DNA of 64,000 nt, from NCBI GenBank assembly GCA_918797485.1, contig CAKKNE010000002.1:1550001-1614000 (forward strand). Reading direction: 5' to 3'. Position 1 is the first letter of the stretch. Every line of letters begins with the position of its first letter. This DNA is from Pelagomonas calceolata. Lineage: Eukaryota. Shown one piece after another: positions 23,398 to 52,964 of this stretch. Under the pieces are notes generated by a model. That model worked only from the letters and a program-made list of their open reading frames with translations, was not told the DNA's origin and did not search any database. Both the position numbers and the translations under genes were made by a program.

Positions 23398-26300
23398 TTA
23401 CACGGTCCCGAAGTCCCCGACGTCCTTCGCCCGCGAGTACGGGCACCGCCCCTCCTTGAGGACGGCGTACTCGAAGTCGTCCTCGTGGAAGAAGCGGTGG
23501 CACGACTGCGAGAGGGCCATGTGCACGTCGGGGATGGCGCTCTTGTAGTACGTCGCTCTCAAACCTTGTTGGCGCGGCTTGCAGCAGAAGACCTCGGCGC
23601 GGTAGAGCGATCTTAATGTTTCGGCGTCGACGGTCACGGGCTTGTACTCGTCGGCGCCGGCTTGCGCCTGGAGCGTGTCGTTGATCGCCCGCGTGAAGCG
23701 GTCCTCGTCGTCGTCGTCGTCGAACACGACGTCAGCTTCCTTCCCTTCACCCGAATTCTTGTCCTCCGGGAACTCCTTGATCAAATCCAAAGCCTCCTCG
23801 TCCGAGATCGACGCCTCCGGCACGAACTCGATGAGCGGCAGCACTTCAAAGTTCAGAAAGCTCCGGACGAACGGGTGGCCGCACGACGTGCAGACGTCGC
23901 GGTGCACGCTCGACCCTTGGCTATGCGATGAAGCAGGGTTCAATAGTGCATTGGAGGCGCCGCAGCGGTAGCAGACCGGCAGCAAGTCGCTCTTATCCCT
24001 TAAAGGCGCCGCATGGATCGTCAACGCCTCCACATCCACTTCATCCCGCCACGCATCCGGTAATTTCATCCTTAATAATTTATCATAAGCATATCTCGCT
24101 AATTTAAAGGCGCCGCAGGTCTTCGCTTGTTTGGCTAGAGTATACAGTATTTTCGCCCGCGAGATACCAAATGGGGCTTCTTTCCCACCCAAGCCATTAA
24201 TTAAGAAGCGAGCGCATTGAAAGAGCACTTCCGGCCGCAACGGCGTATAAGGTAAGAAAAAATCTTCGACATGAGCGTAGGCGTAGTACAAGTCGGCCCT
24301 ATGCAACTGCTCGGTGTACGTAGACATAACTTTCTGTAAGTTATCTTTTTTAGCTGCGACGCGTAACGTCTCGGACGCCAGCAACCAGTAGTAGTAGGAC
24401 GCGTCCTTGAAGCGCGATTCCACGACGGCGTTAAACGTGAGCTCTTGCACCATCCGCGCCGCGCGGTCTTCGCGCCCCGACTTCCTATAAGCTTCCAGCG
24501 CTTCGTCAAATCTGTCGTGGACGGCGAGCCACTCGGCGTAGGGCAGATATAGGGCTTCATCAAATTTCGCTCGAGTTTCTTCGCTGAAGGTCCCGCTCGG
24601 GTCCTCCGCTAATTTGAGGGCCGCCTCCCAGTCCTGCTTTCGGACATATAAGCCTAGTAAAGATTCAACATCATCAAGCTTCACGTAGACCTCTTTGGCC
24701 CGCTCGTCGTCGCCTGCGGGGACATCGACCAGTGTGTCGGGTGCATCGCCACGCCATCGAGCAGTGACAAGCTCTCTCGCGACGCCTCGCGCTGCCCACG
24801 GCGACGACCTGAGGCGCTCATCCACTGATAGGGAGCGTCTCGCAGCACTACTTCCCCACAGTTGAGACTCGCGTCCGGCGACGCGTCGATGGCGTGGAGG
24901 TCGACGCGACGATTTCCACACGGATCGTCGCCGTTCGCCAAAAACGCGCGCGCGCACTGCCGCAGCACATCCTCCGCCGTCACCTGCCGTACTATGAGAG
25001 AAAGTTTCTCGATCCAGCCGTCCGGCTTGTGTTCGTGTAATAGCCTGTGCGCAAATCAACCAGTGAGTCGCGTGCACCGTCGAGCGGCGAGGAACCGGCA
25101 TCGCCACGCCATCGAGCAGGCGTCGCGTCGATGGCGTGGAGGTCGACGCGATGATTCAGCACACAGGTAAGAACCGAACGGCCTGCAGCGCATTCCCGGC
25201 AGACACCTGCAGATCCGCGGCGGCGGACCAGTCCGACGTCTCTTCCGCCCATTCCGCCTGCTTCCTGGTTAATTCGGTCGCGTCGACGTTCTTCGACGCA
25301 GCGGCAAAGGCCTTGGCCTCGTCCCATTGCCGCAAGTCCGCGAATAGGTCGATGGCCTTCTGCGGCTCGCCGGCCTTCGCAAACGCTCTGGCCGCGTCCT
25401 GGTACTTGCCCTGGTAGGCCTGGAGCTCGGCGCGGAAGATGGGCGCTAGTTTCTCGACTTCTTCCGGTAGACCTGCGCGGAGCATCAAATTCGACAAAGA
25501 AACCACCCCCGGCCATCATTCCTGGAAACGAGTGAAGTGGAAGACACCTCAACGCCTCAAAACGCGGCGATCGAACCCTCCGGTTCCGCTTTCTTCCTCT
25601 TGGAGATCTTCTTCGGTTTCGCGACCGGCATCCGCCGCTCCATCGACGTCAGTAACTCGATCCGTCGCAGGTCGTGGACCTTCGCATACGCCGTTTGTGC
25701 TGTGGTCAAATCTAACGCGTTTGCTGCGGAGTCGGCTAAGCTTCTCCAATCCGTCGCCGTCACGCCGAGGCGCGCGCAACTCAACCCTCTAGAATGTTCA
25801 TTCTTGGAGATGAACTGTTTCAGATGATCGGACTGGGGCAGGTCCAGCGACTCGATTTTGAGGTCCCTCGCCACAAATAATTTAGCCCCGACGAATCCGA
25901 CGACTGACCCTGAAACTTTGTGGACCTTGGCGTCGTGGTCGCCCGTCTTCACTAATAATTCATCGCGGTCGTTCCGCGAGTAGCACAGCGTGTCGTCGAA
26001 CTGGGCGTTGAAGCGACACGCCGAGACGCCCTCCGCCTGTGTCGAACGACAGATGGCTGTGTAGACGCTCGCACGGCCGCGTCGATTGTGTGGAGGTGGC
26101 GTGACGTCGTGGCGACGCCCTCGTCCCAAAGTTGAAGTTCATTCATCAAAAACGGACGCCGAGTCGGCACCGAGAACACGAGTTCTTTACTACGAGTGTC
26201 GACCACTTTGAGCTCGTTCTCTTGATTCACGACGGCCAGCTTCCTCCTATCACCCGTCCGATCTAGTAACTTGACCGCGGCTTCACCTGCGCGGAGCGTC

Positions 26301-27972
26301 GCGGTCGCTCGACGCCGACCGAACGGCCTCAAACTCGACAAAGAAACCACCCACTTCATGGTGAGATGGATACGAGTCGCGTCGACGGCGTGAAGGCACC
26401 GAAGCACCGCGGGACGCCGAGATCGCACCTCTCCAGACGTCGACCGGAAACGCGTTGTTCACGTAAATTTTCAGAATGGAACCATCACTACAACCTATCA
26501 GTACGCCCTCCTTGCTTGGTGGACCGCCATCTACTCTCAGACACGTGATATCAGCGTCGAGGATCCATTCTCGCTCCTTCAACTTCGAGAAGCCGTGTAG
26601 AGTTAACTTCGCACCAGAAGCTACCAACACATGTTGCGACGTCACCCCCAAATGATTCGTACGAGAACCGTCGACCCTCAACCTTTCTTTCCGCAAGCGA
26701 TAGTGCATATCAATACTGTTGTCATCCCTCTTATGAAGTTCGTACACATTAATTCGATCCGGCAGTTGGATGGCCAGCCGATCCCGATAGATCGCCACCT
26801 TCCGCACGTAGTCCCTACTCTTAATACGCACGCGCTTCTCGGCGTGCATGTGGTGGACGACCACGTCCGTCAGGTGTTCCCGGACCGCGAACCGGTCGCC
26901 ATCTAATGCGTATATAGGTTCAATTACGACATCCCAGAGCTGGATGGAGCCGCCGTAGGACCCAACCGCTATAGCAGGTTGGCGAGGCCTCACAGCGGTG
27001 GACCAGACCCACTCGTCTATACGACAAACGTCTTTGAGTCGCACGGCTTCCCTCGTACACAAAGTTGTTTTCTTGTCACTGCCACCGACCACTAAATACT
27101 CGCCGTTCGGGTAATAGGAGAGACTGGTCGGATAGCATCCTAATTTTCTCTCTTTCAAATGTTGGGTCCCGGACAGCTGGTAGAACGACAGCGTCTGGTC
27201 CCAGCACCCGACGGCCAGGAGGTCTCCCGGGTCCTCCTTCGCGGGACTCCAGGCCAGGCACCAGACTGGGGCTTTCTTTTCAATCAGCTTGTACTCCTGG
27301 CCACCCTTGTCTCGTATACTAATGCGACCGTCGTACATACCTGTGTGGGAACGATGCCGTCACGAAACCGTCTCCCTCGCGAGACGCGTGGACTCTCTGA
27401 CGGCCACGTCGACGGCGTCGCGGCGGTGCGGTCTCATGAAGACGCCATCGCCGCGACCACGTCAGGTTCAAGTTCATTTTCTGCGCCGAGTCAGCACCAA
27501 GAGCCAAGTACTGCCCGTCGTGCGACCACCTCGCGGACAAAATCTTCGCCCCGACCTTGTGCTTCGTCACGGACTTGGCCGTCGAACTCCACAACCCAAA
27601 ATCACCCTCGGTGCACGACGCGAGCTGGTCGCAGCAGGGGTTGTGCGCGACGACTTGGATGCTATCGCTATGCGTATATTTTAACACTCCTTCTCCTTTG
27701 CTGTTCCAGATAATCACGGTGTTGTCCGCGCCGCCCGACGCAAATTTAGAACCTTCCCTCCCATAACTGACGGTGTACACCAAGTCCTTGTGGCCTCTTA
27801 ATCTGTGTCGCAGGTCGCCGTCTTCAGTAGCGTATACTAACACAAGGTTAGCTACAGCGACCACCAGTTCCGTCCCGGACGGGTTGAAGGCCATGCTGTA
27901 GACCGTGGCCTTGACGTCGTCCTCGCGCCGCGGCGGGAGGCCCGGGTCCGTCCAGAGGAGCTGGGGCCGCAT
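23398..27972 (-). CDS. IFT122: Intraflagellar transport protein 122; 7 exons (27972-27498, 27340-26429, 26286-26171, 26036-25577, 25472-25175, 25044-24932, 24713-23398), ~1229 aa
   Basis: N-terminal WD40s (LRGHKDLVYTVSY, ASGGADNTVIIW, GVLKYTHSDSIQ), PYAEWLAVHDRFDEA, AFKLARYAYDKL, CYRC/CGHPFV, C-terminal RCPY; exon sum 3690 nt. Confidence 0.95.
24714..24931 (-). mobile_element. Introner family A intron (218 nt, GC-AG)
   Basis: TSD GTCGTCGC/ATCGTCGC; joins ANG|DDERAK. Confidence 0.88.
25045..25174 (-). mobile_element. Introner family A intron (130 nt)
   Basis: TSD GTAATAGC/GTAAGAAC; joins AVR|LLHEH. Confidence 0.85.
25473..25576 (-). mobile_element. Introner family C intron (104 nt)
   Basis: GTTCGATCGCCGCGT...GATGCTCCGCGCAG; restores IFT122 frame. 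Confidence 0.82.
26037..26170 (-). mobile_element. Introner family B intron (134 nt)
   Basis: GTGCCGACTCGGCG...ATGAACTTCAAC...CGACACAG. Confidence 0.82.
26287..26428 (-). mobile_element. Introner family C intron (142 nt)
   Basis: GTGCGATCTCGGCGT...CTCCGCGCAG. Confidence 0.85.
27341..27497 (-). mobile_element. Introner family B intron (157 nt)
   Basis: GTGCTGACTCGGCG...CCCACACAG; joins LAL-G|MYDG. Confidence 0.87.
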
Positions 27973-28108
27973 GCTTTTTGTGAGAGGGGGCTGCCCGTAC
28001 CGCTTCGCTGCTGCCCCTGGCCGCTGAAACTGATGGAAGCGGCCCGCGGCGCAGCCCGACGTCGTCGCGTGCGCCCGGCGCAGGCGAGACGGTGTCGCGC
28101 CCAGCTTA

Positions 28109-30931: not shown

Positions 30932-33900
30932 TTACGCCCGCGCCTCGGTGAGCTCCGAGACGTCGTCGTCCAGGATCACGCGCGGCGAGCCGAGGTCCGA
31001 CACGTCGTCCTCGGCCTCGCCGTCGACGTCGCCAAGCGGCCGCGCGGGCGACGCGGCGCGGTCGTGGACGGAGCCCTCGTCGAGCGCCGAGACCTCGTCG
31101 GGCAGCGGCGAGCAGACGGAGGCGTCGCCCTCCTCGAGGACGGTCCAGAGGTGGGCCGGCGCCGGCGCGGCCCCGGGCGCCGGCGCCGGGCCGGGCGCCG
31201 GGCCCGGCGCGGGCGCGGGCGCCCAGGCCGCGGGCGCCGGCGCGCCGTTTGGAGCCGGCCCCGGCGCCGGCGCCCCCACACATGACCACGCGTCCTCCGC
31301 GATGTACGCCGGCGCGTCGGCCTCGGTCGACGCCCGGGATCTCCGACTCTTCCGTTTCGGCCTCTTCGGCTTTTTATGTTTCGCGGCCACCGGCTCGATC
31401 CACGCCGACGACTTGCCCCACTCCTTGCCCGCCTCGCGCAGGACGTGCGCGACATCTAGGTCTCCGGTCGAACCGTTGCGAGCGTCCGTCAATAAAACGA
31501 ACAGTCGTTGTTGGGCCGGCTCCGGCTCCGGTACCGCCCATTGCCCTTGTCGTAATCGCTCATCTAACTCGGCGGCGATATCCTGCGCGGAGCATCGCGG
31601 TTCGGTCCGAACGGCCTCTTCAGCAAAAAAGAAACGACCCCCGGCATCGTGAGATGGCCACGAGTCGAAGGCACCGTACGGGACGCCGCGAGCGCACCCG
31701 CAAATCCGCCATCGACGTCCTCTCTCGAATTTCGTCGGGGAACTCGCGAGACACCCACTTCTCCCGTTTGTCCGCCTCGATGGCCTCGCGCGTGAACGGT
31801 CGCAGGCGGTCCGGTCGACGCGGCTGGTAGTCCTCGACCTCGCCGCGCAGCAAGCCGTCGTCATCCTCATCATCATCATTGCTCTTCTTCTTCTCCTTCC
31901 CCAGGGCCTGGCGGTAGGTCACGACGACGTTGCCGTGCTCGTCGACGTTCGGCTGCTCGGAGGCGACCTGCGCGGAGCATCGCGGTCGTGGAGTGGTAAG
32001 GGAGGATCGGGCGACGTCGTGTCCGGGAATGGTGGCGGTGGGTCGTTTCTCGTTGAATTTTGAGGCGATTTCGAGGTGATTCGGTCGACGTCGCTCGACG
32101 CGGTCCGAAAGGCCCCAAAATCGGAAAATAAACCACCCACGACCTCCTCTGATGGTCACGAGTCGCGTCGATGGCGTGAAGGCGGACGCAGAGCTCGCAC
32201 CGTGCTCTCGTCGTCCTTCTTGAAGACGTTCTCGTTCTTCTCTTTGGGCGGCGCTCGTCTATTATCCCGCTTTTCAAATTCGTCCATCAACAGTTCGTCG
32301 GCCGAGGGCGCGACGGCCCAGGCCGGCGGCGGCCAGACGTGTAACGATACCGAACCGCCACTTCTCGTCCGTTCGCGTTTCCGAGCTTGTTTTCTGGTGC
32401 GTAACGGGAGGGAGATCTGGGCCGGCTGAGAACTTGTAGGAGCCGTCGCCGCGTCCTTCGGCGGCTTGGGCACGGCTTTGAGCTCCAATAACAAATCCCC
32501 GGCACTTATCCGGGCTTCGCCCAAGCACAGGTCGCCCCGCAGCTCCTTGCGCCAGACTTCGACGATGAGCGTCCACTTCGGGGGTTGCCAGCTTGGCAAC
32601 ACCTCGTACGGGGCCTGCCATTCTCCAGATGCCATCGGCGGCGGCAGGGAGCATAGATAACTAAATGAAGCGGGCGCGCCCTGGACCCTCGTGCGACAGG
32701 GTTTTGTGGTGCCGACCTCCCACTTGATCAAGGAGGCTTCCTCCGCCTCCTGGCGCATGGCCTCGGCCGCGTCCTGGTCGAAGCCCTGTGTGGAACATAT
32801 ACAATCGCGAACCCGTCTCCGTCCACTCACGAGACGCGTGGACTCTCGTGTGATCATGAAGACGCCATCGACGCGAAGCGGCATCGCGAGGACGCCATCG
32901 CCGCGACCACGTCATGTTGAAGCTCATTCTTCACGCTGAGTCAGCACCGGCACGTTCTGCTCGAGCAAGTCAAAGCCCAGATCCGTCAACGCTTGGTCGA
33001 TCTCGGGCTTGACGTCCTCCCTACTCATCAGTAGACACTCGGCGTCTTGGCGCTCCCGCTCCTTCTCTTCGGGAGTCTTCGCGTCCTCCAAAGCTTGTTT
33101 TCGCTGCCTCTCGGCCTCCTCGTACCTGCGCGGAGCATCGCGTTTCGAAGTGTCCATCTCAGCATGACGTGGGTGGGCTCTGGTCCTTCAATGAACCGGT
33201 TCGGACCGAGTCGCGACTCGACGGCGGTCGCGGTCCCGACTCGGTCCGAACGGCCTCAAAATCACAAAAGAAACCAGCCACGTCATCGTGTGTTAGGTAC
33301 GAGTCCCATGGAAGGCGCCGCAACGCCTCAAGACGCCGCGCGCGCGCATGCTGATGCAATACACGAGCTCGTCGTAATCGAGCGTCCGGTCTCCGTCGAC
33401 GTCGAACGCACTGAACACGGTCGACGCGTTCGCCGTGAGCCACGTCACGAAGGGATTCAGGTCCTCGTCGAACAGGGCTCTCTGCAGTTCTTGTATTGTT
33501 AGTTTCCTGTGATCCGTGTCGACGCCTCGCAAACGCTTAGCTGCGACGGCGAGCGCTTCCTCTAACGTCTCCGGCTCCTTCTCCTTCTCTTTGGGCGCGT
33601 TCGGGTCGGGAGCTTCATCGTCGCCCGTGTCGCAGATGTCGAGAATCTTCTTCGCGATCCTATACTTGTTGCCCGTCCCGTCGAAGACGACCAGAGACCG
33701 CTCCGACTCGGTATCTGAAGCATCCTCTACTATTTCGGGCTGTCTTTCCCGCTCTTCGATGCGCAGAACCGCGTAGGTCTCGTTCCTACCAAACACACTT
33801 TTGTGTTTCAACTTGCAGGCCTCATTTAACCTGAGAGGCAGCTCATCCACCCCAATTTCCTGGAGGAACTGCTCGCGATGAGCTTTGGTCTCCTGTCTCT

Positions 33901-36900
33901 GTTGTAATTGTTTTTTACTGATACTTCGAGCCTGCCGCAGAGCCACTGTCTCCAGCGCATTCGCCTCCTTCAATCCTAAAGCGCCGGGGTACTTTGAACA
34001 CCACGCATCGACCACAAACTCGCAGGCCTCGGGGATGACCTGCCGCGTCGTCTTCCTCCGACCCTCGCTGTCCTTCGGTGTGCTATCAGCAATTCTCTCC
34101 ACAGCGTCCGTGTGCAGCTCCAGCGGCTCCAAACCCCTTCGGACCTCGATGGACACCCAGATCTCCTGGGGCAGTTCTTTTACACTTGCCACAGATTCAT
34201 CCTCAGAACTATCCGTGACCCACTCGTAGACCGACTCGTACTCGGGCACGTCGTCCCCGGCCTCGAGCGCCCTCCGCTCCGCCTCTTCCCGCTCCTTGCG
34301 CTCCTCGTCTTCGCGCTGCTTCTTCTTCGCTTCGCGCGACAATGCACTTTTCTCGAAGTCGTCGAACTTGCCGTACCTGCGCGGGGCGGCGGTTTCGCGT
34401 GCCGCGGCCGTCGGCGCGCGTCGCGAGGCGTCGAGGCGTGTCGCCTCCACGAGAGGAGGCGGCCAGTGGTCTTTTTTTCGAGTTTGAGCCGCTTCGGACC
34501 GCGTCGAGCGACCGCGTCCGAATGACCTCGAAGTCGACAAAGAAACGACCCCCAGCATCGCAACACCTCAAGACGCCGCGCGCGCGCAGCTTGTTCATCT
34601 TCTCAATATTCGTGTCGTCTTTCGCGTTGAAGGTCTTCCGCGCGAGCGCCGTCACCTCGTCGACGCCGTCCCAGCCCGCTATTTCGAGCCACTTCTCGTA
34701 CAGAGTCTTGTCGTCGTCCCGCGAACATTCGGCGATCAATGAAGAAAGTACTGCTCGCGCCGGCCGGACGTCGCCGCGCGTCAGATGCGCCTTGGCCAGC
34801 AAAAAGCGCCACTTCGGCGGCCACGGCTCCGGTAGACTTCGTAAACATCTCTTGGCCGCTTGAACAGCTTCCGTGGCCAAACGAGCACCCAAACAAGCTT
34901 CAGCATAACAAGCACACAAGCGAGCGACCTCCACCTGATCGAGGGCCTGGCCCATGGCCTTCTCCTGGGCCTGTATCGCGGCGCGACACGCTCGTAAAGC
35001 GTCGCCCGGCGACCGTGTCAGACGACACTGAGCCATTGTATCCAAAGCGTCGTGGTATTTCGTGCGAGCGTCTCGCTGATTCTTTTCAGATCGATAAATG
35101 GCGTCGTTCTGCCGCGCGTTATCACCCTTGCGCGCGGCGTTCCGCCAGGCCGCCTCCGCATTTTGGACGTTGATAACACCTGTGTGGCACAGACACCGTC
35201 GCGACATTGTCTCCGTGCACTCGCGCGACGCGCAGACTCTCATGTGCTCATGAAGACGCCATCGACGCGACGCGGCATCGCGTCGACGCCGTCGCCGCGA
35301 CCACGTCACGTTGAAGTTCAATGAAGACGCTGAGTCAGCACCAAGATACTTCGGGAAGCACTCGGCGATGGCCACGCCCCGGTGGATGAGCCGCGCCTCC
35401 TTGGCGCGCTGTCTTGCTGAAGCCGCAGCAGAGGGCTTGTTCTCTTCGTCGGAATCGGACGAGTCCGAGTCGCGGCGCTTTTCCTTTGAAGGCGCGGGCG
35501 GCTCCGGTTGCAGACCGAGGGCGATGCGTTCCGCCATGAACGCGGCGTGCGCCCTCAACTGCTCGGTGGGCACGTGCCAGTGCGGGTCGGACAGCGCCGC
35601 CGACGCGTTCGGCCCGCGGCTTCTCTTTAAGCGCGCTTCGCTGTGCGGGTCGCGGCCCCACGGGTTTTGGATTCGATCCGCATCTTCCCTTATTCCCGCG
35701 TTTCTGCCATCTACGAGTGCTGCGGCCGCATCTAGACACCGGTGCATGAACTGACGCCGTTCGAGCGCTCGCGCTAATAAAGGTCGTCGTCTCCGGCCGC
35801 CGTCCGCCGCGTCTCGCGCCATACGAGGATCTTCTCTCTGTAACCAAGTAGTCTTGGCGACGACTTCCCGCCCCAACTCGACGCCGTTCGCATCTCTGGC
35901 AACCACAATCAATCCGTCGCCCGCGTCCAACGCCGTCGAAAAGAAGGCTGCGGCACCACCTCTCGGCCGTCGGACCACCGCCGCGGCGAAGGGTAGCGGC
36001 GCCGGCCGCAACCCGACTTGTAATCGAGTTTTGAACGTTCTATGATTTCTTTCGGCGATACGCTTCAATGGACTTGTACCCTGCTCCGTCTGCCGACAGA
36101 CCCAATGCGACACGCGCACGCAGAGCTCCCTACGCGCGTCGGGCGGCGCGTAGACCCAGTGCAGGTCGGCTTCCGCTCCTGCCCTATCTCTCCATTCATT
36201 TTTATCTACAGACATGGACTCGCCCTCGTCCTCTGAACTCTCGTCCGTGCTCTCGGCACCCGAATGCTCTCGCCTCCTGGCTTGTCTAGTTCGTACTCGT
36301 AGGGAGAAGCCGCAGTCCAACACGTCGCATCGTAACGACGTATCTGAGAGAGATCGCACGCTCCGACAACCAACTGGTGTAGCTAAGTGAGTGAAGCGCA
36401 ACTTCGCGGCCGAAGCCGCCGCCGCGGCCGCGCGATCGCAGTCCCGCGACCGATATCTAATGATAGACGTCGTCAGCCTCGACAAACCCATCTGGTGCTT
36501 GCGCACCTTCTTCAACATCAGTTCCGACCGTCGCTGCAAATCCCCGAGTCGCAACGCCTCCGCGCCGCACGCACACAACGCGCACTCGACCTGGACGCGC
36601 TCCCGCCGCCTCGATTCCTCATTACTCACACCTATTTGGATCTTCTCGCCCAGGTCGTCGGGGTCCCAGGTCTCGGCCTGCGTGTTTCAAACTTCAAGTT
36701 GGGCTTCAACTCGGGGTCTGTCGTGGTCTGAGAGAGGTTCGAGTGTATCTCTCGGAGGTCGTGTCCGAGTTTGGGCCTCTCAGAGGGCCGCGGTGCCGAG
36801 ACCGCTCTCACTCGGCGAGACGCGAGGATCGCATCGATGGCGTCGGACGATGCTCCCAGACGCCGTCGACGCATGGTTGATGTCCACACGGGTCTCCGCG

Positions 36901-39900
36901 AGCGTCGTTGTTTCTTCACTCGACACTTTCGCTTCGGGACTCTCCGGATCTAGTAATTTAAAGGCAGCGACCCACCAGCCCGCGGCCGGCGGCGCGAGAT
37001 CCTGTATTCTAGTCCACAAGACCTCCGCTCGGTCGTGGATGGCTATCAATTGTCTTCCTAAGTCTAAAACTTCTTTCCTCAATGAAGACGCTTCGCTACG
37101 CAGGTCGTTCGCGTCCCTGCCGTCCCTGTGGGCCTGCCGCGCCTCGGGCGTGCCGTAGCGCACCTCGGCAATCCTCACATCTCGCAGGAACGACGCGCGA
37201 CCGATAGCAGGTTTGCACGCCTGATGTTCACGCTGTTCTCGTCTAAGAACGTTCTCAGCGTCCTTTCTTTCGCGTCGGACGGCCATGCCGGCGGCCACGG
37301 CCACGGTGAGCTTGCCCTGGGCCTGTGTGGGAACGGCACCGTCGCGAAACGACCGCGACTCTCTCACGAGGCGCGTGGGCGCTCTGGCGACCGCGTCGAC
37401 GACGTCGAGGCGATGCGGTCTCATGAAGACGCCATCGCCGCGACCACGTCAAGTTCAAGTTCATTTTTCACGCTGAGTCAGTACCGTTTCCGTGGTCCCA
37501 CCCTTGAGAAGCTTTTTCGCTTTTCGAGTCGAGAACAACTCGAGCAGACCCTTTTCTCTTTCTAAAAACACGCGGTGCTGCTGCTTCGATTGAACGCCCG
37601 GTCGCATCGCGTCCTCGACCAGTAAAGTCGCGTCGTTGCGATGTCTATCACATACGCCGAGCTCGTCGTCGTCCCCTTCGTCGTCGGACGGCGGTCGCGC
37701 GCCCCAGGACTCGCCGTCGCTATCGTCCGATGGTAATTCTGCTAGCTCCACCTTCTCCGAGGCCGTCGTAATTAGCGAAGCTGCTTGTAGCGTCTGCACG
37801 GAGCCCTGGTGGAATTGTACTGTAGAGTCCTCCTTGAGCGGGGAGATGTCCGTGTGTAATGTGAGGACCGAGTCCGTTTGTAATCCCGGGGACGCCAGAG
37901 ACTCCGTCTGGAGCGTTCTGGGGGACGCCTGCTCGTCGAGGATCGCCAGTTGTGTAGCACGGGGGCTCGCGTGCGGCGTCGCGTGCGGCGTCGTCTCCCG
38001 CATTTCCACAATTCGCGACGCGCGCGACGGCGCCGTCGCCTCGGAGCGTTGGCCGATCGTGGATTGGGCGAGGTCGTCGTCAATTTTCAAAGCCTTCTGG
38101 ATGGAGACGGGCTTGCTCAGCTGCTTTTTCAACCGTCGCCGCTCCTTCCGGACCCGGCGCAGAGCCTCCCGTTCGACGCGCGTCTTCCGCGCTCGTCTCG
38201 GCTCGTCGTCACTCTCGTTGCGCCGCGGTTCGGCACCAACAATAGAGTCGACCTTCTGTCGCAAACGAGCCGTCGTCGGGTCCGCGAGACCGAGCTCTAC
38301 TAGTCTAGCAGCGACGCCGCGCTGCTGGTCTCTGGAAAGCCACTGCAACGGCGCTCGCAATTGTCCTAATGAGAACCAACTTTCGATGGAAGTGACACAC
38401 AACGCCTTCGCGCCGGACGGCACGTGCCGAGCTTCCAACTCAATTCGGCCGTCAATTCTTCGAGCCGACGCGAGCCACCTCTCCAAGCCCACTCGCCCTT
38501 CCGCATCGTCCTTTAAATCTCTCGAACAGGCCGTGCCGCAGGCCAACTTAATGACGGACCGCCAGAGCATGCGATTCGTATTCGCGAAGTGCCGCGACGT
38601 GACACCTCGTAGGCGCCAGTCACTACCGGAAGTACGAGGGATCCTATCTGTACTACAAGGCAAATCACAGCCGTCATGAGGCAAAGCGCACCATGTCTCA
38701 GCAGTGGGCCACACTAACGCATCGGACGGGTGCACACATAGCACCGGGACGCCGTGGCGCGTCTCGAGTCTTAGAGAAAGGGCTCGACACAATTTCGCCC
38801 TTTCAAGGTCCGCGAGCCACTCCAGCCTCGAACCATAGCCTAACAAGCGCCAGTCGCTCATTTGTAGCGAGTATCTATGAGCTCCTCTCTTCGAAGGAAC
38901 GTGCGCGTCGCACCAAGCTAATACTATACGCAGCTCCTGTTGAGTGGTAGTGAACCGCAGCCGACACGGCACGTCTCTGACAAGGCAGGCCACGTCACAA
39001 CTCCATTGCTCTTCCTCGTCGATGCTGTCCTCGAGGCCGTCGAGTACGAGTCGGCCCCGCTTCACATCGACACAATCGGCGACGGCTTCACACAATGAGG
39101 CGCGCGCTCGAGCCGACCAGACCGCATCCCCTCGGCAGTACTCCTCGAACCCGAGCCCTCGGATGTAGGACGACGGGAGGTCTCGCTCCAGATGATTCGG
39201 CGCGGCCCAGTCGCTCGCCGAGCGCTCGGGCGCCACGCTCCCGTCCTCGGTGCCGACGCGCGACGCCGCGGCCGACGTTGGCCGCGACGTCTCGCGCGAC
39301 GCCGGTCTCGATGTTTCGCGGCTCGCGGGCCGGCTCGTGTTGCGAGAGGACGGCCTCGACACCGAGTTCTCGCGCGACGCCGGGCGCTCCGGCGAGAGGA
39401 GCCGCCGCGTCCCGAAGGCCTTGAAGGCCTCGGCGTCGTCCTTACGGGCTCTGCGCGACGAGCGGCGCCGGGCGAGCGCGTCTCGCGCCCCGCCCCGCTT
39501 CATGGCAGATGAAGTGGCCTCGCGGGCCTTCTCTCTATCAATCAACAACGCGTCGCTCCGGTCCTGGGCCTCATCTCTCCTCGTGCGGCCACACAAGCGC
39601 ACGTGGACCCGCCACCGCAGGTCCTCCGGTGCTGCGCCGCGCGCCTCGTCTTCGTAAGACAATCTAACGATGCAGCGCCGGCCCTTCACGACTCTGATAC
39701 ATGAATAAGGTGGATTGCGCGGCTCTATTCTAGCTAACGCTCTTCTCACTCTGTCTAAAGCTTCCTCTCGCACCTCAAGGACATCAGAACCCTCCTCGTC
39801 ACAAGAGGCCTTCTCGAGCGCGTGCAAAGGTAGCCAGTACCGCTCCGTGCAACACAGGCCGTCCAGCTCCACTTCGGCCGCATCTCTCGCGGGCACGACC

Positions 39901-41091
39901 CTACGAACCGTCCCCGCGGGCCCGATCGCACTCGATCGGCGAGACCAGAACTCCCGCTCGTCCCGCGGCGCCCAGGCGCTCACGACGCGCTGCCCCGCCT
40001 TCACGAAGTCGCCCCGCCGCTTGTTCGCGACGCGAAAGGCCTCGTGGACGTCCATCCTTAGCAGGCGCGGCGACCTGCGCGGAGCATCGCGGTTCGTATC
40101 TCGGTGTGAGATGATCGACGCGCGTCGTGACCACCTCATGATGAAGTGGGCGGTTTCTTTTGTGATTTTGAGTGAATTCGGACGCGATTCGGGGCGGTCG
40201 CGCGACGCGGTCCGAATTCACTCAAAATTCAATATAAAACCACCCCCGGCATCGTGCGATGGACACGAGTCGCGTCGATGGCGTGAAGACGCCGATATCG
40301 CACGTTACGGGAATCCACTTCCACGAGGTGTCGTCTTTCCCGAGCTCCCCAATGAGCACCTCGTCCTCCTCGTTATCCAGTTCTCCTCGCTCTCGGAACG
40401 CCTTAACATGGCCAGGAACCCACTCGCGGTTCTTCCAGCATAATACGGAAGCACCGTTCTCGAGGCCAGGAACGTTCTCGCACGAAGGCGCGTCGAGGCG
40501 CGCCCCCAGATGCTTCTCGAAGCGCTTCGTCGCCTGGGCCTTGCCTCCGGAACTAAATGCTGCTTTGGCCATACTACCTTGCAGTTTCGACTTTAGTAGT
40601 TTGTGGCTGAGGCTCCGCTTTTTTGGCGGTGGGCTCGTGACAGGTACCTTGCGGACGACTTGGGGCGACGCTGCGGCCTTTTGTTTGGCCGTGCGCAGCT
40701 GGATGGCCTCGAGCATCTGGGCCGCGGCTTGCCTCGACTCGACCCTTACTCTAAACCGTTCGTTCGCGCCCTGTCTAGTGGTCCCGCCGCCGCTCACTTC
40801 CGAGCCGCGGCAGCGACATATCGTCTCGTCCTGGGCCAGCAAACGACTGACTAATCGCAACGTGTCGGTGGTCGACGCGTAGCCCCTTGCCTCTGCGATG
40901 CGCTCGGCGGTCTCTTCGACGGCGGCGACGTCTTGTGCGGCCTGGCGCGCGGCGCCGCCGTCGAGCGAGGGCCGTCTTTGTAGTGTGGGGCGTTCCCTGG
41001 TGGAGGGCGGCGGCGGCGGCGGCACTACTACTTTGTCGGTGGGGCTCTGTGCCAGCACGGCGTCGAGGGCCTTGCTATGGGCTGGGTCCAT
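30932..41091 (-). CDS. Giant protein (~2813 aa) with coiled coils, TPR-like helices, an EF-hand and a C2-like domain; 10 exons, 9 introner introns
   Basis: Exons 41091-40304, 40074-37485, 37322-36900, 36677-35342, 35179-34588, 34376-33348, 33125-32948, 32785-32201, 31967-31698, 31582-30932 join in frame (8442 nt); EF loop DVDGDRTLDYDE; C2-like LIVEVW...LGEARI. Confidence 0.75.
31583..31697 (-). mobile_element. Introner family C intron (115 nt)
   Basis: GTGCGCTCGCGGCGT...GATGCTCCGCGCAG. Confidence 0.83.
31968..32200 (-). mobile_element. Introner family C intron (233 nt)
   Basis: GTGCGAGCTCTGCGT...GATGCTCCGCGCAG. Confidence 0.83.
32786..32947 (-). mobile_element. Introner family B intron (162 nt)
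   Basis: GTGCTGACTCAGCG...TTCCACACAG. Confidence 0.85.
33126..33347 (-). mobile_element. Introner family C intron (222 nt, GC-AG)
   Basis: GCGCGCGCGCGGCGT...GATGCTCCGCGCAG; joins CISM|YEEAE. Confidence 0.8.
34377..34587 (-). mobile_element. Introner family C intron (211 nt, GC-AG)
   Basis: GCGCGCGCGCGGCGT...CCCCGCGCAG; joins NKL|YGKF. Confidence 0.8.
35180..35341 (-). mobile_element. Introner family B intron (162 nt)
   Basis: GTGCTGACTCAGCG...GCCACACAG; in frame and stop-free. Confidence 0.85.
36678..36899 (-). mobile_element. Introner family A intron (222 nt, GC-AG, inverted orientation)
   Basis: TSD GTCTCGGC/GTCTCCGC; joins TTL|AETW. Confidence 0.82.
37323..37484 (-). mobile_element. 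Introner family B intron (162 nt)
   Basis: GTACTGACTCAGCG...CCCACACAG. Confidence 0.85.
40075..40303 (-). mobile_element. Introner family C intron (229 nt)
   Basis: GTGCGATATCGGCGT...GATGCTCCGCGCAG. Confidence 0.85.
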
Positions 41092-41546: not shown

Positions 41547-42970
41547 ATGTGCCCCGCGCCCCCAGCCCCGCCGGCGTCTCCCGACGCCCACTACGTCCGC
41601 CTGGAGGCGCCGCCGACGCCCACCAATGAAGCAACCGACGCAACTGAGGCAACGACGAGCGCCGCCGCGACGGCCGCCGTCCTCGCGAACGCCGTCATGG
41701 GCGCGGGCATCCTCGCGCTACCCTACGCCTACGCGAGGAGCGGCGTCGCCGGCGGCCCGGCGCTCGTACTGTTCGCGGGCCTCACGAACGCGTTCACGAT
41801 GCATTTACTGTCGAGCGTGGGCCGGCGCGTCGCCCAGGACAAGGCTTCGTTCCACGCCGTCGCGTCCGCGACATTGCCTCCATCATTATGGTGGCTCGCC
41901 GATTTTGTAGTTTGTTCCATGATGGCTTTAGTTGCTACTTCGTATCTAATCGTCTTCGCGAACCTGGCGCAAGCGGCACTCGCTAGCAAGAGGAGGTACC
42001 CCTACGTCGTCATAGCCGCAGGCGTCTGCGCGCCCTGGGCCTACGCCGAGAAGCTGGGTGGCATACTGCAGTATACCTCCTATCTAGGTCTGATATTAGC
42101 TATATATGTGGCATTATTATCCATAGCGAATTGGCTCGACGCGGACCAGTTCAAGCCATGTCTGACAGGACACCACTGCGGCGGCACGTATCAATTATTT
42201 GAACTGAACCTAAAGACGCTCGACGCCTTCGCACTGGCGACGTTTGCCTTTACAGCGCAAACGCAAGTACCACAATGTGCCAACGGCCTTGACCAATACA
42301 CCCAGCCGAAGATGGACTTCGTATGTATTTCAGCAGTGCTCTTCTGCGCATTGCTCTATGCAGTGGTAGGACACGCGGGATACGAGACGTTCGGCAGTGA
42401 CGATCTCGGCGTCCCGTCGTGTTGTGGTGGTTTCACTTCTTCAATACGACTCGTCTCCATCAGAGAAGGCGATGGGTGCTTTCTTTGTCGAGTTCGAGGC
42501 CATTCGCGATGCCCCGCGCAGGTCTCGTGAATTCCGATCTACTAGAATCGTACCCCAATGCACCGGAAGTGGTGGCGGCTCGATTATGTGTAGCGGTCGT
42601 CGTCGCTACTTCCTACCCGCTCATGGTCGTGCCGTTTCGGGACTCGCTTCATTCGATACTCATGCATCAGACGCGATCACCGTCAGTGAAGGCGTTCGCT
42701 TCCCATCCACACTTCCGTGTCGTCGTGACGACGGGTTTCGTTCTCATATCTGCCGCGGTTTGCGTCGTTGTAAAGGATCTGGGGATAGTGCTGTCGATCG
42801 TGGGTAGCACGGCCGGGACGACGGTGGCCTACGCCATCCCGTCGTATGCGTATGTGCGCACGTTTTCTGGCGACCCCGACCGGAAGTGTTCCTTGATGCT
42901 CGCGCGGTGCGTCTTCGCGTATTCGGTGGTCGCGGTGCCGGCGTGCCTCTACGCGACGTTCCGGCCGTGA
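41547..42970 (+). CDS. Amino acid transporter (Aa_trans/AAAP, SLC38-like); intron 42397-42521
   Basis: ANAVMGAGILALPYA, FAFTAQ, GYETFG, SYPL, DLGIVLSIVGST. Confidence 0.9.
42397..42521 (+). mobile_element. Introner family C intron (125 nt)
   Basis: GTGACGATCTCGGCGT...GATGCCCCGCGCAG; joins FG-S|LVNSD. Confidence 0.83.
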
Positions 42971-43094: not shown

Positions 43095-44378
43095 TCAGCA
43101 CGCCGTCGACACCGTGCAGTCGCAATTCGCGGCTTGCTGGGCGCTGTCCTTCCCAGCCTTGACTAATGTGGAGACGAGGGTATTGACCTGCTTCAAGGAC
43201 GGCGTCCAGGACGTCGAGACCGTCGTCGCTTGGAAGCATTGGTCCGTAAAATCCAAAGCTAAGGCATCATCATAAAACGTCGGCTCGAGCTCGCCCGCGC
43301 CGATGGGGCAGAGGCAGGCCATCTGGCAGCCGTCGGAGTCGTCGCCCATGTTCCCTTCCAGCTTGTAGCAGGGCGCGCCCATGCAGACCTCCACCACGTC
43401 GATCTCCCAGGCGAACCCGGCGTTGCTGTCGTGGGACTGGATATGTGTTTGAGCTTCGGAGTGGGACTCGCCTTTAGCTAAGGCTTTTCTGCGGCACTCT
43501 TCATTGGTGGCGCCCGTGTGGAAGGAGATGAAGTCGCAGCCGAGTCCCGACTCTTCGCAAATCGTGCCGTCGGTCAGCGCCGTGCAGAACGCGGGTAAAT
43601 CGAGGGTCCCGGCGTACTGGGCGGCCACGGCGTTGCGGTACGTTTCACTTTGAGAGAGGTAGATGGTCGACGAGCCCATGCGGAAGGTCGACTCCATGGG
43701 CGTGCCTGCGCGTGATATGACATCGAGTCGCGATCTCGCCCGAAACGCGCTCAAAATCGAAAATGAGACCACCCACTTCCATCATTCCTGGAGACGAGTC
43801 GCGTCGATGGCGTGAACACATCGTAGGACGCCGCGAACACACCCTCGAACATCTCGTTGACCGTCTCCGGGGCGCACTTGCACGCGGCCACGTCCGGGTA
43901 GTCCTCGAGCCCCGAGCACGTCGTCAGCCCGCACAGCGCGTAGGGCTGCGTCCCCGGCGTCGACAGGTCGCAGGTCAGCTGCCAGAACTGGTCCTGCGTG
44001 GGAACGACGCGTCGTATTCACTGGAAACGGTCCGAACGGCCTCTTCAGCAAAAAAGAAACCACCCGCGACCTCGTCTCATGGACACGAGTCGTTTGAATG
44101 AAGTGAAGGCGCCGTAACACGTCAAGACGCCGAGATCGCACCTGCGTGACCGTGAGGTCGTAGACCCAGCTCACCGACGGCGTGCCGCGCGGCGTGCGCA
44201 GCGACGCGCGCAGGTCGGCGTAGCGCTGCGTTTTTGTAAGAGTGGCGGCCATGCAGAGCGTGCCGACGACGGCTGCTGCGGCGTACGGCCTGCGGCGCTT
44301 TTCGGTGAGGAGCGGTGCGCTCTCCATGAGGGGCGTGGTCGCCTCGGCGTCGGTGGCGCCGTAGTTTTTCTCCTCCAT
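43095..44378 (-). CDS. Cys-rich type II membrane protein; exons 44378-44142, 43993-43843, 43705-43095 (~332 aa)
   Basis: N-terminal YGAT and ESAPLL (dileucine-like), one TM, Cys-rich luminal part; exon sum 999 nt. Confidence 0.7.
43706..43842 (-). mobile_element. Introner family C intron (137 nt)
   Basis: GTGTGTTCGCGGCGT...CACGCGCAG, core motif. Confidence 0.8.
43994..44141 (-). mobile_element. Introner family C intron (148 nt)
   Basis: GTGCGATCTCGGCGT...CCCACGCAG. Confidence 0.83.
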
Positions 44379-47140: not shown

Positions 47141-49403
47141 CTACTGGGACTCGACGGCGGACCCCGGCGCCGACCAGGCAAAACGAGAAAGCCCCTCGGA
47201 CTCGACGACGGCCGCCGCCGACACCGCTGCATCAACAGCATTCTTCTCGAAGTCGCGCCGCAGCCCCAACGCCGCGCGCACGTCGCCTCGACATACGCCC
47301 GCGGCCGACAGCCGCAGCGTCCTCACGTCACTCGGCGCCTCGACGCACAACAACGCCAAAGCGGCCGTCGTGGCCTCGAGCTCGGGACGTAACGTCGCCC
47401 GAAAGACCTCGCCCTCGCCCAGCGACTCCTCGGACGGCAATAACGCGCCCAGCGTCGCGAAGAGCTTCCGCGCGTCGCGCCGTAGCGCGAGGGCCCCCAA
47501 GGCGCCTACGTTGTCGCCGCTCGTGCACCGCGCCAATACCGCATTCGCAGCGTCTTTCGCTAATTTCCGACATAACGCTAATCTAGGCGCGCCCGCCGGC
47601 AGCGCGTCCAAGGCCGCCGTCAAAGCGGCATGATTTAGTACTTTCTCATAGGCGTTGTCCAGCGCCGAGTCGTCGTCACCAAGCACGTCCTGGTCGCCCA
47701 GTTTTGAGTACCTTCCTATTTTATCAGCAACAACATCAGCAAAGAAACTTCTCCGAGAAAGCATCAGACCGGGCTCGTCGAACAAAGCGGATAGTGCACC
47801 TGCGCGGAGGAGCATCGTATTCACTGGAAACGGTCCGAATGGCCTCAAAATCAAAAAAGAAACCAGCCACGACCTCGTCTGATGGACACGAGTCGCGTCG
47901 ATGGCGTGAAGGCGCCGCAACACTTCAAAACGCCGAGATCGCACCGGCCGCGAGCTCGTCGTACTGGTGTGAGGCGTGGTCGAAGTCATCTAGTAGAGGC
48001 ACGGCTAAAGGTACCGACCGCGCGAGCTCGCCCACCACTTCATCCTTCAGCGCCGCCACCGAAGAAGCACAGGCGAAGGCGCCGCCTGCTGCCACTGCTA
48101 AGGATTCGATCGACGCGCCGCGGACCTCCTCATCCACCGCATCAATTAACGACAGCTCCTTCTTCTCGCCCCTTGTAGCTAGTGAAGCCGCTGACTGGAA
48201 GACTTCGGCGTCCAGGGCCAGCGTCGCCAGCGTCCGGTGTAATTCCGCCAGCGCGGCCTGCTCTGATAGCGTCCCGACAGCTCGGTCCACGCCCCTCCGC
48301 AACACGAAGAAGGCGTCCTGCAAGGCAGCCAGCGGGTCGTCCATATCCTCAAGCGCTTCTCGCACGCCCGCATCTCTATACCTATCTTCCAGTTGGATAT
48401 ACAAACCTTCCAAGGTTTGTAAGGATTTCAGGAGAGTAGCCGTAACGGTCTCACCCTCCCCGAGCGCCCCCTCGACGAACCTCGTAAAGCGGTGGCCGAA
48501 CTGCAGCGCGAACGAGCACTCGTCTAGTAAAGCATCAGCTTCAGTTAAGTTGGAAATGGGCTCCCTACTAACAGTTTCCACGGACTTCATCATCGCGAAC
48601 CTTTCCAAAGCGTCGACGCCGGCGTTGACGCCTATTTGTAAAGGTTTTTCGGCGGCCTTTGCGCACCGCGCTTCGCCCAACACCGTACAAGCTTGCGCGA
48701 CCGCCGCCGCGGCACACGCCGCACCCAGCGCATTTCCTAATGCGGTAGCGTGGGCGTGCACGCTGTTCTCCTCCTCGGGTATGGCACCTCTTATCTCAAG
48801 AGTGGCGTGGTTCGCTCGACGATGCGCCGCGGCGGCCAACGCCGTGCCCAGCGCTTCCGTCGCGTCATCACTCAAACCCAAGAACGCGAGGCGCTCGCAG
48901 GCCCTCGATACACTTTCAACAGCGTCGTCCTCGGTCTCGACGCCGCCGTCGCCGACAACTTCGTCGGCACCTCGGGCCGCGACCGTCGCCGCGACTTCCA
49001 GCGACGCGAGCAGCCGCGGTTTTGAACCTTTCAAGGCGGCGTCGGCGAGCGCTTTCACAACATCATCTCCCTGATGACGCGCCGCGTTCAGTAGAGGAAG
49101 TAAAGCGGCCACCACCTGATCGTCGTCGCCTTCTTCCCTTGCCACGTGGCACTGTTCTACCATGAGACCGATTGCTTCCATAGAATCGTCCTGCGGACTT
49201 CGCGGCGGCTTCGGAGGCTTCGGCGGCTGCGGCGGCGAGCGGTGCTTCGCGGCGCGCGCCGCGAACTTGGCGCGCGCCGGCGTGCGTCCCGGCGGCGGCT
49301 GGGGCACGTCCGGCGTCGCATCCGCGACCGGCTCGCCGCCCGCGCGCGCGATCGCCGCATCCATCTTCTCGTCGTAGTTGGGGTTCGCAGGGGGTCTGCT
49401 CAT
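47141..49403 (-). CDS. COG4: Conserved oligomeric Golgi complex subunit 4-like; exons 49403-47945, 47799-47141 (~705 aa)
   Basis: DALLDE, YIQLEDRY, QDAFFVLRRGVDRA, LGALALRRDARKL. Confidence 0.7.
47800..47944 (-). mobile_element. Introner family C intron (145 nt)
   Basis: GTGCGATCTCGGCGT...CTCCTCCGCGCAG. Confidence 0.87.
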
Positions 49404-50335: not shown

Positions 50336-52964
50336 TCACATTTTTATGAGCTGCGTGTCCTCGGCCGTCGGCGGGCGCGACCCCGGCGACTCGGACGGCG
50401 CGGCGCCCTCGGCCTTCTTCTTCTTCGAGAGCCGTCCGAACAGCGACAGCTTCGGCGTCGGCTGCCGCTCGGACGGCGCCGGCGCCGGCGCCGGGGCTGG
50501 AGCCGGCTCGTCGACGAGGCCCGCCAGGGAGAGGTCGCCCATCGTGCGCCTCCTAGCTCGTAGTTCTTCGGCCCGCTCCGGCCAGAAGTAGGTCGCGCGG
50601 CCGTCGTGCCCGGCGAACGTGTAGTCGTGGCGCGGATCCAACCATTGGGAGGTGTGCGACGCGACGTGGTAGTGGAACTCGCGCTCCGTCGCGGGATCCG
50701 TAAATTTCTGCCAGCCCAGCGTCATCGCGTCGGCCGGTCTTCTCCGCAGAAAGTCGTCGCCGTCCTGGGGCACGGGCGCGGGCCATTCTCGCACCGGTCG
50801 TCTTCTAGGTGTCGCCGTCGTGTCTCCACTCGGATTCAGGTCCACGCCGCCTGATACCATAGGCACTCGTATCGGCGTATCATAAGCTTTCCAGATTGAA
50901 TCGTGCAGTGCACCAATAGCGAAAGGTTTCTTATCAAATAGTAAATCGGCAAGTAATTTGCCGAACCGCAACCCGTACATGTCTCTCAGCAGATTAGTTG
51001 TGTTGAATATATATATACTATCCGTGAGCACCGTCTCATCGTCCAGGTCGCGACATTCATCCATCTCTAACTCCAGCCAATACGACGACGAACTCTTCGT
51101 ATGTCGAACACGAATCCACCCCAGCAACCGGCGCGCCGTGAGCCGCCAGCTCTTCTCCAGCGTACTATGATTGACCAAGCTTCTTTCTAGTGATGGAGCG
51201 ACCATCAAGCACCCGAACAGCGCCTCGTCCGCCGGATCGAGACACGGTAATTGATGTCTCGACCAGAACTCGCTCCAGAAGAACTTCCGCTGCAGCTGCA
51301 GGTGGAAGAGTCCTGCGTAGCGGCGGTTTCGCGTGTTGCCGCGGTTTTCTGGCTCTCTCGCGGCGTCGACGCGACTCGTTTCCATCAGAGAAGGCGCTGG
51401 GTGGTCTCTATGGCAATTTTGAGTCGATTCGGACGCCGCGCGACGCACGTAATGGTCTGAGTAGTACAGGACAAGCACAGCAAGCTCGTATGAGCTCAGG
51501 AAACCGCACATGTGTCTTCTCCCCGAACAACGATGAAAACAGGTGCAAATGCCCTTTCGGGGTCCCGCCATGCCTGTGTGGGAATCAACCAGTGAGTCGG
51601 GTGCTGGCTCCGTCGAGCGGCGAGGAACCGGCATCGCCACGCCATCGAGTAGGCGTCGCGTCGATGGCGTGGAGGACGACGCGACGATTCAGCAACGCGC
51701 CGTGAAATTTTGATTTCTGCACTGCTCCATGCATGAGTGATACTAAATCCTCAAAGGGCTTGAGGGGCACTAACGCGTTCTCCGCGATCATTTGCGGGTC
51801 CAACAACAGCCGGAAGAACTTGAGGATCACGCCACAAGGACTTTGCCGCGCGAAGTCGTAGCCCGCAATGAGGAAGCGAGGGAACGTAATACACCCAACA
51901 TCGCGCGCCCTTTTGAGACCATGTAATTCTTTGACAAATAACAATGGGATTAGTATGAGTGAAGTGGCTTCGGACGTCTGGTGGTCGAACAAGTCCTGGA
52001 AATAATAAGTAGATATGCGGTTCGGTACCTTATGACCTGCGCGGCGCGTCGCAGTCGTCGACGGCGTCCTGATGGCCACGTAGACTCTCGTGGGATCACG
52101 ACGACGGCGTGACGCCATCGACGCGACCGCTGTCTCTCTGACACGCCGCGACGGCCCCGACGTGGTCCGAACGGCCTCAAACTCGAAAAAGAAACCAGCC
52201 GCGACCTCGTCTCATGGACACGAGTCACATCAACAAAGTGAAGACACCACAACACGACGGGACGCCGAGAACTGACTGTCGTCCGGGTGCTTCTTCGCGT
52301 GCAGATTGTCGTAGTACGCCTCATAAACTTTATACATCTCGCCCTGCGTGATCTTGTGGTGGAGCGCCCAAGCTTCCAAGACCAAGAACGCCTGCTGGTC
52401 CATGAGCGACGGGGGAAACTTGGCGCCGCTCTCGTCCGGCCTTATGACCTCCTTGCCTTTGCTATCGACGGACGTCGTCTGGATGCGATATTCCCTACCT
52501 GCTCTGGTGCCGTCCGCTCGTTTCGAGGCGAGGTACTTCCGATAAGCCGCGACCACCCAAGCTAATTTGCCGCCCCGGGCTTTCGCGGCCGCTCGGCGCA
52601 TGGCCGCGGCCCGCAACTTCCTACGTCTTTTCCGTTCCTTCACCGTTAATTTTCTCATTTTTCCTGTTTTCTCATCTAGTTCTTCGTCGGAAGACTCCTT
52701 GGCCCGGAGACCGGCCGTGAAGGACGCGCGCCAGGACTCAAGAATAGCGTCGGCCTCGGCCTTGATTTCGTTCCTTTTGATTTCTTCGGGCGTCGGGCCC
52801 GGGGGCGGCTGGTTCCGCTGCCGTCGCGCTCGTCGTCGCGCGCGCCGCTCCTGCCGCCTTCTTTCGTCAGCTTCCGCGCGCGTTTCCCGACCTTCCTTCG
52901 GCGCGGCCTCGGCGAGCTTGGCGCGCATCTCCTCCTCCGTGGGTCTCCTCGGTTCGTCGGCCAT
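50336..52964 (-). CDS. Hypothetical protein with C-terminal WW domain; exons 52964-52277, 52036-51733, 51573-51449, 51312-50336 (~697 aa)
   Basis: WW: LGWQKFTDPATEREFHYHVASHTSQWLDP; exon sum 2094 nt. Confidence 0.7.
51313..51448 (-). mobile_element. Introner family C intron (136 nt)
   Basis: GTGCGTCGCGCGGCGT...CGCTACGCAG; restores frame. Confidence 0.75.
51574..51732 (-). mobile_element. Introner family A intron (159 nt, GC-AG)
   Basis: TSD CGCCATGC/CTCCATGC; TIRs. Confidence 0.87.
52037..52276 (-). mobile_element. Introner family C intron with family B-like internal segment (240 nt)
   Basis: GTCAGTTCTCGGCGT...CCGCGCAG; 52081-52125 resembles 32839-32875. Confidence 0.8.

Follow-up and report, generated by a model that had tools for sequence, protein, structure and literature searches.

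The 64,000-nucleotide stretch of Pelagomonas calceolata DNA analysed here (the window; contig CAKKNE010000002.1 of assembly GCA_918797485.1, positions 1,550,001 to 1,614,000) contains introners of family A, which have terminal inverted repeats (TIRs) and 8-bp target-site duplications (TSDs) and occur in both orientations, and introners of two further families, B and C, with neither feature. B and C are genuine spliced introner families. Their insertion scar is statistically present though invisible copy by copy, and the excess of target-matching intron starts is likely to be an eroded 4-5-nt target duplication. The account that we favour, and consider moderately probable, is insertion at the DNA level with a short G-H-N-N duplication, in which the splice donor is co-opted from the target and the acceptor is carried by the element, followed by ectopic gene conversion that erases the scar.

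Results

Motif scans and frame tests in the window (64 % guanine plus cytosine (GC), zero N) gave five B and 13 C introns spanning 25473..52276, numbers that an earlier sequence-only reading had reported, and three B copies are exactly 162 nt long (32786-32947, 35180-35341 and 37323-37484). The C-core pattern matched nine times in the window and not once across 100 shuffles. Exact splice joints in stranded raw RNA reads, taken from the 15 best joints listed per read comparison, were observed for all 18 copies, always on the host-transcript strand, and the introns have GT..AG or GC..AG ends, as predicted. Run X21 gave nine of the joints (31-719 reads each) and runs X22-X24, a single sample, the remaining nine. 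The downstream exon begins with G at all 18 copies and with GT at nine of the 13 C copies, as stated earlier. The earlier description was thus confirmed with refinements: GC donors in two C copies (33347 and 34587), an inverted core, a chimera, and a second, inverted core in the four long C copies, which are fold-backs. The B copy at 26037-26170 does not have the TGACGTGGTCGCGGCG motif. The introns are given below, with single read counts from X21 and triple counts from X22-X24.

25473..25576, minus strand: C intron, short form, 104 nt, GT-AG; RNA joint 53 reads
26037..26170, minus strand: B intron, diverged, 134 nt; RNA joint 51 reads
26287..26428, minus strand: C intron, 142 nt (modal length); RNA joint 43 reads
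27341..27497, minus strand: B intron, 157 nt; RNA joint 31 reads
31583..31697, minus strand: C intron, 115 nt; RNA joint 504 reads
31968..32200, minus strand: C intron, 233 nt, fold-back of core and inverted core (self-inverted repeat); RNA joint 539 reads
32786..32947, minus strand: B intron, 162 nt; RNA joint 130 reads
33126..33347, minus strand: C intron, 222 nt, GC donor, fold-back; RNA joint 73/53/97 reads
34377..34587, minus strand: C intron, 211 nt, GC donor, fold-back; RNA joint 27/12/58 reads
35180..35341, minus strand: B intron, 162 nt; RNA joint 4/12/29 reads
36678..36899, minus strand: hybrid intron, 222 nt, GC donor at 8-bp TSD (7/8 match), A-type left TIR and non-A right end by sequence; RNA joint 35/17/48 reads
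37323..37484, minus strand: B intron, 162 nt; RNA joint 13/15/31 reads
40075..40303, minus strand: C intron, 229 nt, hairpin nearly full-length (fold z = -8.4); RNA joint 11/1/15 reads
42397..42521, plus strand: C intron of a gene on the plus strand, 125 nt; RNA joint 25/32/33 reads, with mates on the opposite strand
43706..43842, minus strand: C intron, 137 nt; RNA joint 719 reads (X21), seen again in X22-X24
43994..44141, minus strand: C intron, 148 nt, B-like acceptor end; RNA joint 497 reads (X21), seen again in X22-X24
47800..47944, minus strand: C intron, 145 nt, first 4 nt equal to the downstream exon; RNA joint 16/11/20 reads
51313..51448, minus strand: C intron, 136 nt, splice ends sense, core inverted relative to the transcript (core match on plus strand); RNA joint 5/21/22 reads
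52037..52276, minus strand: C+B chimeric intron, 240 nt, internal B-profile match, non-consensus start GTCA equal to the first 4 nt of the downstream exon; RNA joint 9/12/14 reads

The properties by which introners are defined (Gozashti 2022) were all found. Alignments over 128 unique sites show similarity among introns of unrelated genes up to both boundaries, the copies are spliced out at standard sites (18/18 RNA joints, GT/GC-AG), and 13 filled/empty pairs of coding sites show presence and absence at orthologous positions, with gain and loss unpolarised. No joint that skips a B or C copy, as an empty site would give, was among the joints listed for the public DNA runs X14 and X3; contigs show presence, not absence. 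A search of Rfam gave 0 matches.

The B/C family is also present in marine metagenomes, and a protein encoded in the window is represented in the NCBI and MMETSP collections. A scan for the C-core pattern in JGI metagenome contigs yielded at least 130 loci, 126 of them (L009-L134) used here. The first automatic set held 80 unique sense sites and the curated set 128 (111 C and 17 B), the window copies being included in each. In curation 16 of 161 automatic rows were removed (chimera sub-hits, low-scoring antisense calls and the doubtful L035, L067, L086 and L115), three donors were shifted by hand and 51313-51448 was added; one residual error is a false merge of window 32200 with the B site of L015. 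The curated introns contain 110 of the 143 pattern matches. By eye, the other 33 comprise sense introns for the most part, their ends variant or truncated, along with six inverted cores and one A-ended fold-back; three of the 143 (L024, L033 and L094) have no clear splice ends. Across the junction the sense frame is open at 109/128 sites and the antisense frame alone at 1/128, and intron phases are distributed 52/27/49. The core pattern had 0 matches in the viral contigs searched. A 17-nt acceptor motif hit eight loci there, none with a family profile match listed, and these were treated as chance. L135 (prokaryotic match) and L017 were without family flanks and were removed.

Some genes may be prone to insertion, as suggested by L030 and L080, which have no site in common and differ at four over 1.6 kb. 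Distinct C insertions lying 100 nt from each other within a single gene are also seen in separate lineages (L052:2354-2493 and L110:251-392). Near a gene start, in a TC-rich tract, L043:2381-2529 holds a 140-nt A-like fragment with no TIRs that L059 lacks and that may be an insertion of non-intronic or non-canonical type.

The evidence for a residual target duplication lies in the intron starts. At the 128 sites the downstream exon begins with GT (75), GC (37), GA (11) or GG (5), that is, with G at every site and with G-H at 123. The contiguous match between intron start and exon start exceeds the permuted expectation: at least 2 nt at 83 sites against 69.0, at least 3 nt at 34 against 16.6, at least 4 nt at 17 against 7.0 and at least 5 nt at seven against 2.7 (5000 permutations, p 0.0002-0.007). 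For B alone, a match of at least 3 nt occurs at seven of 17 sites, with 1.6 expected. Single positions 6-10 show no excess over the 128 sites. Donors follow the target too: GC donors face a GC target in 13/20 cases against 24/108 (p=3e-4), and GTC (p=0.003) and GTA (p=0.002) starts behave likewise. In three same-site pairs from different lineages (L037/L071, L088/L011 and L134/L062) one allele has a target-matching start (GCA, GTC and GC, respectively) and the other the GTG consensus, most simply explained by overwriting of the duplication. The earlier suggestions of a duplication of only 1-2 nt and of family-specific ends at both splice sites are not supported, the second because donors follow the target and because A, B and C exchange ends and cores. 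Exons are restored exactly: the 13 filled/empty pairs are collinear with zero net exon gain.

On the acceptor side B and C have a conserved CRCAG-type intron end. An acceptor-side TSD, as in Micromonas, was considered and rejected, as the upstream exon showed no excess match to the intron end; position -1 is G at 68/128 sites and the upstream exon ends in AG at 15/128.

Cryptic TIRs or an 8-bp TSD like those of family A would have spoken against a separate class, and neither was found. The local score for terminal inverted repeats was 11.0 against 10.8 in shuffles for C (n=111) and 9.4 against 9.7 for B (n=17), while family A reached 22.6 against 10.0 (n=11). Folding gave only about 4-5 terminal pairs in B and C, not above shuffles, and among six short copies four had folds no stronger than those of shuffles (z -1.4 to +0.3), with z of -1.95 and -2.4 in the remaining two. 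The window and 135 loci contained no element bounded on both sides by C-type TIRs. The exon match shows no excess at positions 6-8, and the longest prefix, 6 nt, occurs at 2/128 sites.

The three families exchange sequence. A and C have in common a module of 33-68 nt, the CACGCCATCGACGCGAC module, with alignment scores of 44-49 against shuffle maxima of 32-38. L032, shared with L097, has A-type TIRs and a perfect 8-bp TSD (8/8) around a C core; L111, L093, L091 and L010 also combine A ends with a C core, with decayed TSDs. C starts are joined to A-like acceptors in L072, L054 and L107. There are seven C+B chimeras (L014, L028, L056, L090, L106, L116 and window 52037). The right end of the hybrid at 36678-36899 is unrelated to A, and its further internal module, which it has in common with L091, may represent a fourth family. 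The last 8 nt are alike among A, B and C, a likeness that may partly be the acceptor consensus of the species. Most A copies of the window keep 5-8 of the 8 TSD bases, and two A copies (window 21633 and L051) keep just three, the first three.

Inverted cores occur at nine sites (window 51313, L010, L012, L029, L034, L041, L091, L093 and L119), so that sense fixation concerns the splice ends only. The proposal that these families always lie in sense orientation thus holds for their ends and fails for the core, and the insertion in either orientation typical of family A is not seen: B/C ends are sense-fixed and the core alone inverts.

Several family A copies are variants. In 21633-21731, 22044-22236, 51574-51732, 8263 and 24714 the left TIR begins with CAG or CCG, not CTG; the third of these is RNA-confirmed and has its GC donor at the TSD start. 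At 25044-25166 an internal deletion has fused the TIR start with the subterminal GTGCTGA motif, which resembles the start of family B. Hundreds of opposite-strand RNA reads at 51601-51694 come from a different A copy, and some A copy elsewhere is thus abundant in polyA RNA, as a retained intron or in an untranslated region.

C copies are mosaics of alternative blocks, with fifteen three-block combinations, and linkage between blocks 2 and 3 and between blocks 1 and 3 was not detectable (p 0.16 and 0.23). The nearest non-allelic identity has a median of 0.88 and none exceeds 94 %, the 0.94 pair L102/L126 being in fact allelic. In ten same-site pairs across lineages, 97 of the 154 substitutions exchange one state common in the family for another, with 32 expected, and several of the differences are multi-base block swaps inside otherwise idiosyncratic copies. 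These swaps point to ectopic gene conversion.

Discussion

We propose that a non-autonomous DNA element would enter an exon at a G-H-N-N site, likely with a duplication of 4-5 nt. The left copy of the duplication would become the 5' splice site and the element would supply the CAG acceptor. Splicing would restore the exon exactly, as seen at the 13 filled/empty pairs, and one orientation of the ends would survive; selection for the spliceable orientation, offered earlier as a fallback, fits the data. Resident copies would then trade blocks by ectopic gene conversion, the swaps themselves having been observed, and selection favouring a GTGCG donor probably assists. Conversion would replace positions 2-5 with the family consensus, shuffle internal modules and move cores between A-type and B/C-type ends. 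Finally, fold-back copies would lose one arm and leave sense-core or inverted-core introns. The earlier reading suggested that B and C may spread by a different route from A. Their insertion signature does differ, and an RNA or single-stranded DNA intermediate is not needed.

Several points weigh against this proposal. Neither a TIR nor a transposase was found for B and C, which makes the mobilising enzyme hypothetical. The metagenome copies come from several lineages, were selected by C core and have reading-frame support only, while the evidence on B comes from 17 sites. The presence/absence pairs are unpolarised and the same-site pairs could include parallel insertions. Just 17/128 sites keep a match of at least 4 nt and 45/128 match in the first G only, so that the size of the TSD (4 nt, 5 nt, or 8 nt since overwritten) is inferred. 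In the first set position +1 was G at 79/80 sites, the exception being L116 with A, outside the curated set. By our own reading +1 is not G in 4/13 empty alleles, against 0/128 filled ones; the G thus seems to be held also by the presence of the intron, or marks insertion, and is by itself weaker as proof. Part of the target signal may have been kept by splicing or conversion and not left by insertion. Blocks 1 and 2 are linked (p=6e-4), and hypermutable sites, which fail to account for whole-block swaps, can raise the common-state count.

An explanation that we regard as rather unlikely holds B and C to be immobile: A, with its TIRs and 8-bp TSD, would found each intron, and break repair or conversion would rewrite it almost end to end, leaving 1-6 nt of TSD. 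The G/GY rule would follow directly and a second transposase would be unnecessary. Intermediates of the kind expected exist, namely a C core enclosed by A ends (L032/L097, L093, L111), an A-type left end paired with a right end of another type (36678-36899, L091), A-like acceptors behind C starts, A copies reduced to the first 3/8 TSD bases, and the module common to A and C. However, none of 13 lineage-specific insertions in coding sequence has A ends, no same-site pair combines an A-ended copy from one lineage with a C-ended copy from another, and the A-ended copy common to two lineages (L032/L097) retains 8/8 of its TSD. Most A copies of the window likewise keep 5-8 of 8 bases, and positions 6-8 of B and C are without excess match.

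Spread through RNA, which we consider improbable, would have the excised intron reverse-spliced by the spliceosome into messenger RNA or the single-stranded DNA of an R-loop at G sites and copied to DNA, with the target-like 5' bases added by error-prone repair. The missing TIRs, the sense-fixed ends, the exact exon restoration and the open sense frames agree with such a route. The model has been published for Micromonas (PMC4540971, PMC10996645), and heterogeneous 5' junctions arise in the retrohoming of linear group II introns (PMC3280974). If reverse splicing were clean, a TSD of whatever length and a copy-specific match to the target would both be missing, yet a copy-specific target prefix was observed. 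As to the expectation of transcribed, sense-only copies, most core matches are sense introns, and in three of 143 the splice ends are not clear. The upstream exon resembles a protosplice site only weakly, the available part of PMC3280974 reports deletions and microhomology, not target duplication, and the inverted cores and A-ended chimeras require recombination at the DNA level in any case. The missing scar may not imply an RNA route of spread.

It is highly doubtful that B alone is a TG...CA element, resembling a solo long terminal repeat, with a 5-bp G|GHNN duplication straddling both splice sites, or that the introns arose by break repair templated on a resident intron through 1-5-nt microhomology, even though B reads G|GTGC-TGACTC...CACA-G|G, -1 is G at 14/17 B sites against 54/111 C sites and junctions ambiguous by just 1 nt are fewer than in permutations (15 against 21, p=0.02), since -1 G is missing at 3/17 B sites, C has no TG after the 4-nt slot, a retroelement body was not found and splicing favours -1 G too. 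TG...CA termini with a GG duplication were rejected for C, with -1 G at just 42/80 sites of the first set and 54/111 of the curated set.

Among known systems, classes 4/5 of the introner-like elements (ILEs) of Polarella glacialis and the ILEs of Symbiodinium are closest in description to the insertion that we propose. They have a 4-nt GHNN TSD and one orientation and coexist with 8-nt, two-orientation classes; the 5' TSD copy is the donor, the element provides the acceptor, and donors drift after insertion from GA to GC/GT (bioRxiv 10.1101/2020.10.14.339549). B and C have the G-H target start, the carried acceptor and the single end orientation in common with them. An intact 4-nt TSD is described in the Polarella ILEs, whereas B and C show the decaying prefix (17/128 sites at 4 nt or more, 7.0 expected); unlike those ILEs, B and C are block mosaics whose cores move between end types. 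The likeness is one of description.

Family A of the window corresponds to the Aureococcus-type TIR introners with 8-bp TSD that Huff et al. reportedly described in 2016. B and C resemble this type in taking the donor from a G-starting target, carrying a CAG acceptor and restoring the exon exactly, and differ from it in having no terminal inverted repeat, no 8-bp TSD and a fixed orientation of the ends. In PMC9481584, 956 putative introner elements have GT/GC donors and a conserved TIR.

The available rows, 10 of 11, of the P. calceolata families catalogued by Gozashti et al. 2025 (PMC12130899, Dataset S2) include fam2 (hAT, 340 copies, 5' site co-opted and 3' site carried), which we place beside the TIR type above, fam1 (83 copies, GT 68 and GC 15, "direct insertion"), fam30 (also "direct insertion") and several more families with a 2-nt TSD and the call "unknown". 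Like fam1 and fam30, B and C are repeated introns with no called TSD, and the GC donors of fam1 (18 %) are close in frequency to those of C (18/111). The catalogue consists of automated calls without mechanism, and the comparison is again by description, not sequence; B and C are probably among the catalogued families. TSD-less families are thus already catalogued for Pelagomonas, and what is new is the likely scar erasure and the module shuffling.

Families with and without TIR and TSD coexist in M. pusilla, and families from Pelagomonas metagenome-assembled genomes were scored "?" (PMC9860276). B and C resemble the TIR-less, TSD-less introners of ascomycetes and Micromonas in being shorter than 250 nt, non-coding, sense and seamless (PMC9860276, PMC4540971, PMC3879977). 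Fold-back and cropped forms also occur there and in internally symmetrical stwintrons (PMC8469720), and merged copies have been noted in Micromonas. A copy-specific residual target duplication and exchange with a TIR/TSD family, as found here, are not described for ascomycete and Micromonas introners in the available parts of these papers. Allelic exchange between strains has been reported (PMC5647799). In the literature covered there was no account of ectopic conversion erasing introner TSDs; one may exist in subscription journals, in supplements or with the GitHub sequences.

The open question addressed here is how introners without TIR or TSD spread. About 72 % of catalogued introner families are unclassified (PMC12130899), and reverse splicing is argued for mainly from missing scars (PMC10996645). 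The likely erasure of scars and the shuffling across families bear on the origin of scarless introners. A bolder and less probable reading is that such families can arise without being mobile themselves, or after losing their scar: a transposase would found the introns and ectopic repair would rewrite them nearly end to end, the introns of the alga making up one recombining pool. Concerted evolution could then have produced the signature of no TIR, no TSD and sense orientation only that has been cited for spliceosomal reverse splicing in fungi and Micromonas. Consensus sequences can mislead when families are counted, dated or called "direct insertion". A cheap test is available for any such family: intron starts are permuted against downstream exons and orthologous copies are compared.

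Other features of the window

B and C copies are clustered at 25-52 kb of the window and A copies lie mostly outside. The exon flanks of the 18 B/C introns have a mean GC content of 0.586, against 0.628 for 12 A-type window introns (p=0.03), values that are non-independent as several introns share genes. A 130-nt direct repeat, 99 % identical (28106-28235 and 30674-30803), lies on either side of a plus-strand gene at about 28.9-30.6 kb and resembles a recent gene duplication or insertion. A tandem repeat at 53383-54068, with a 258-nt unit and about three units, lies within an open reading frame.

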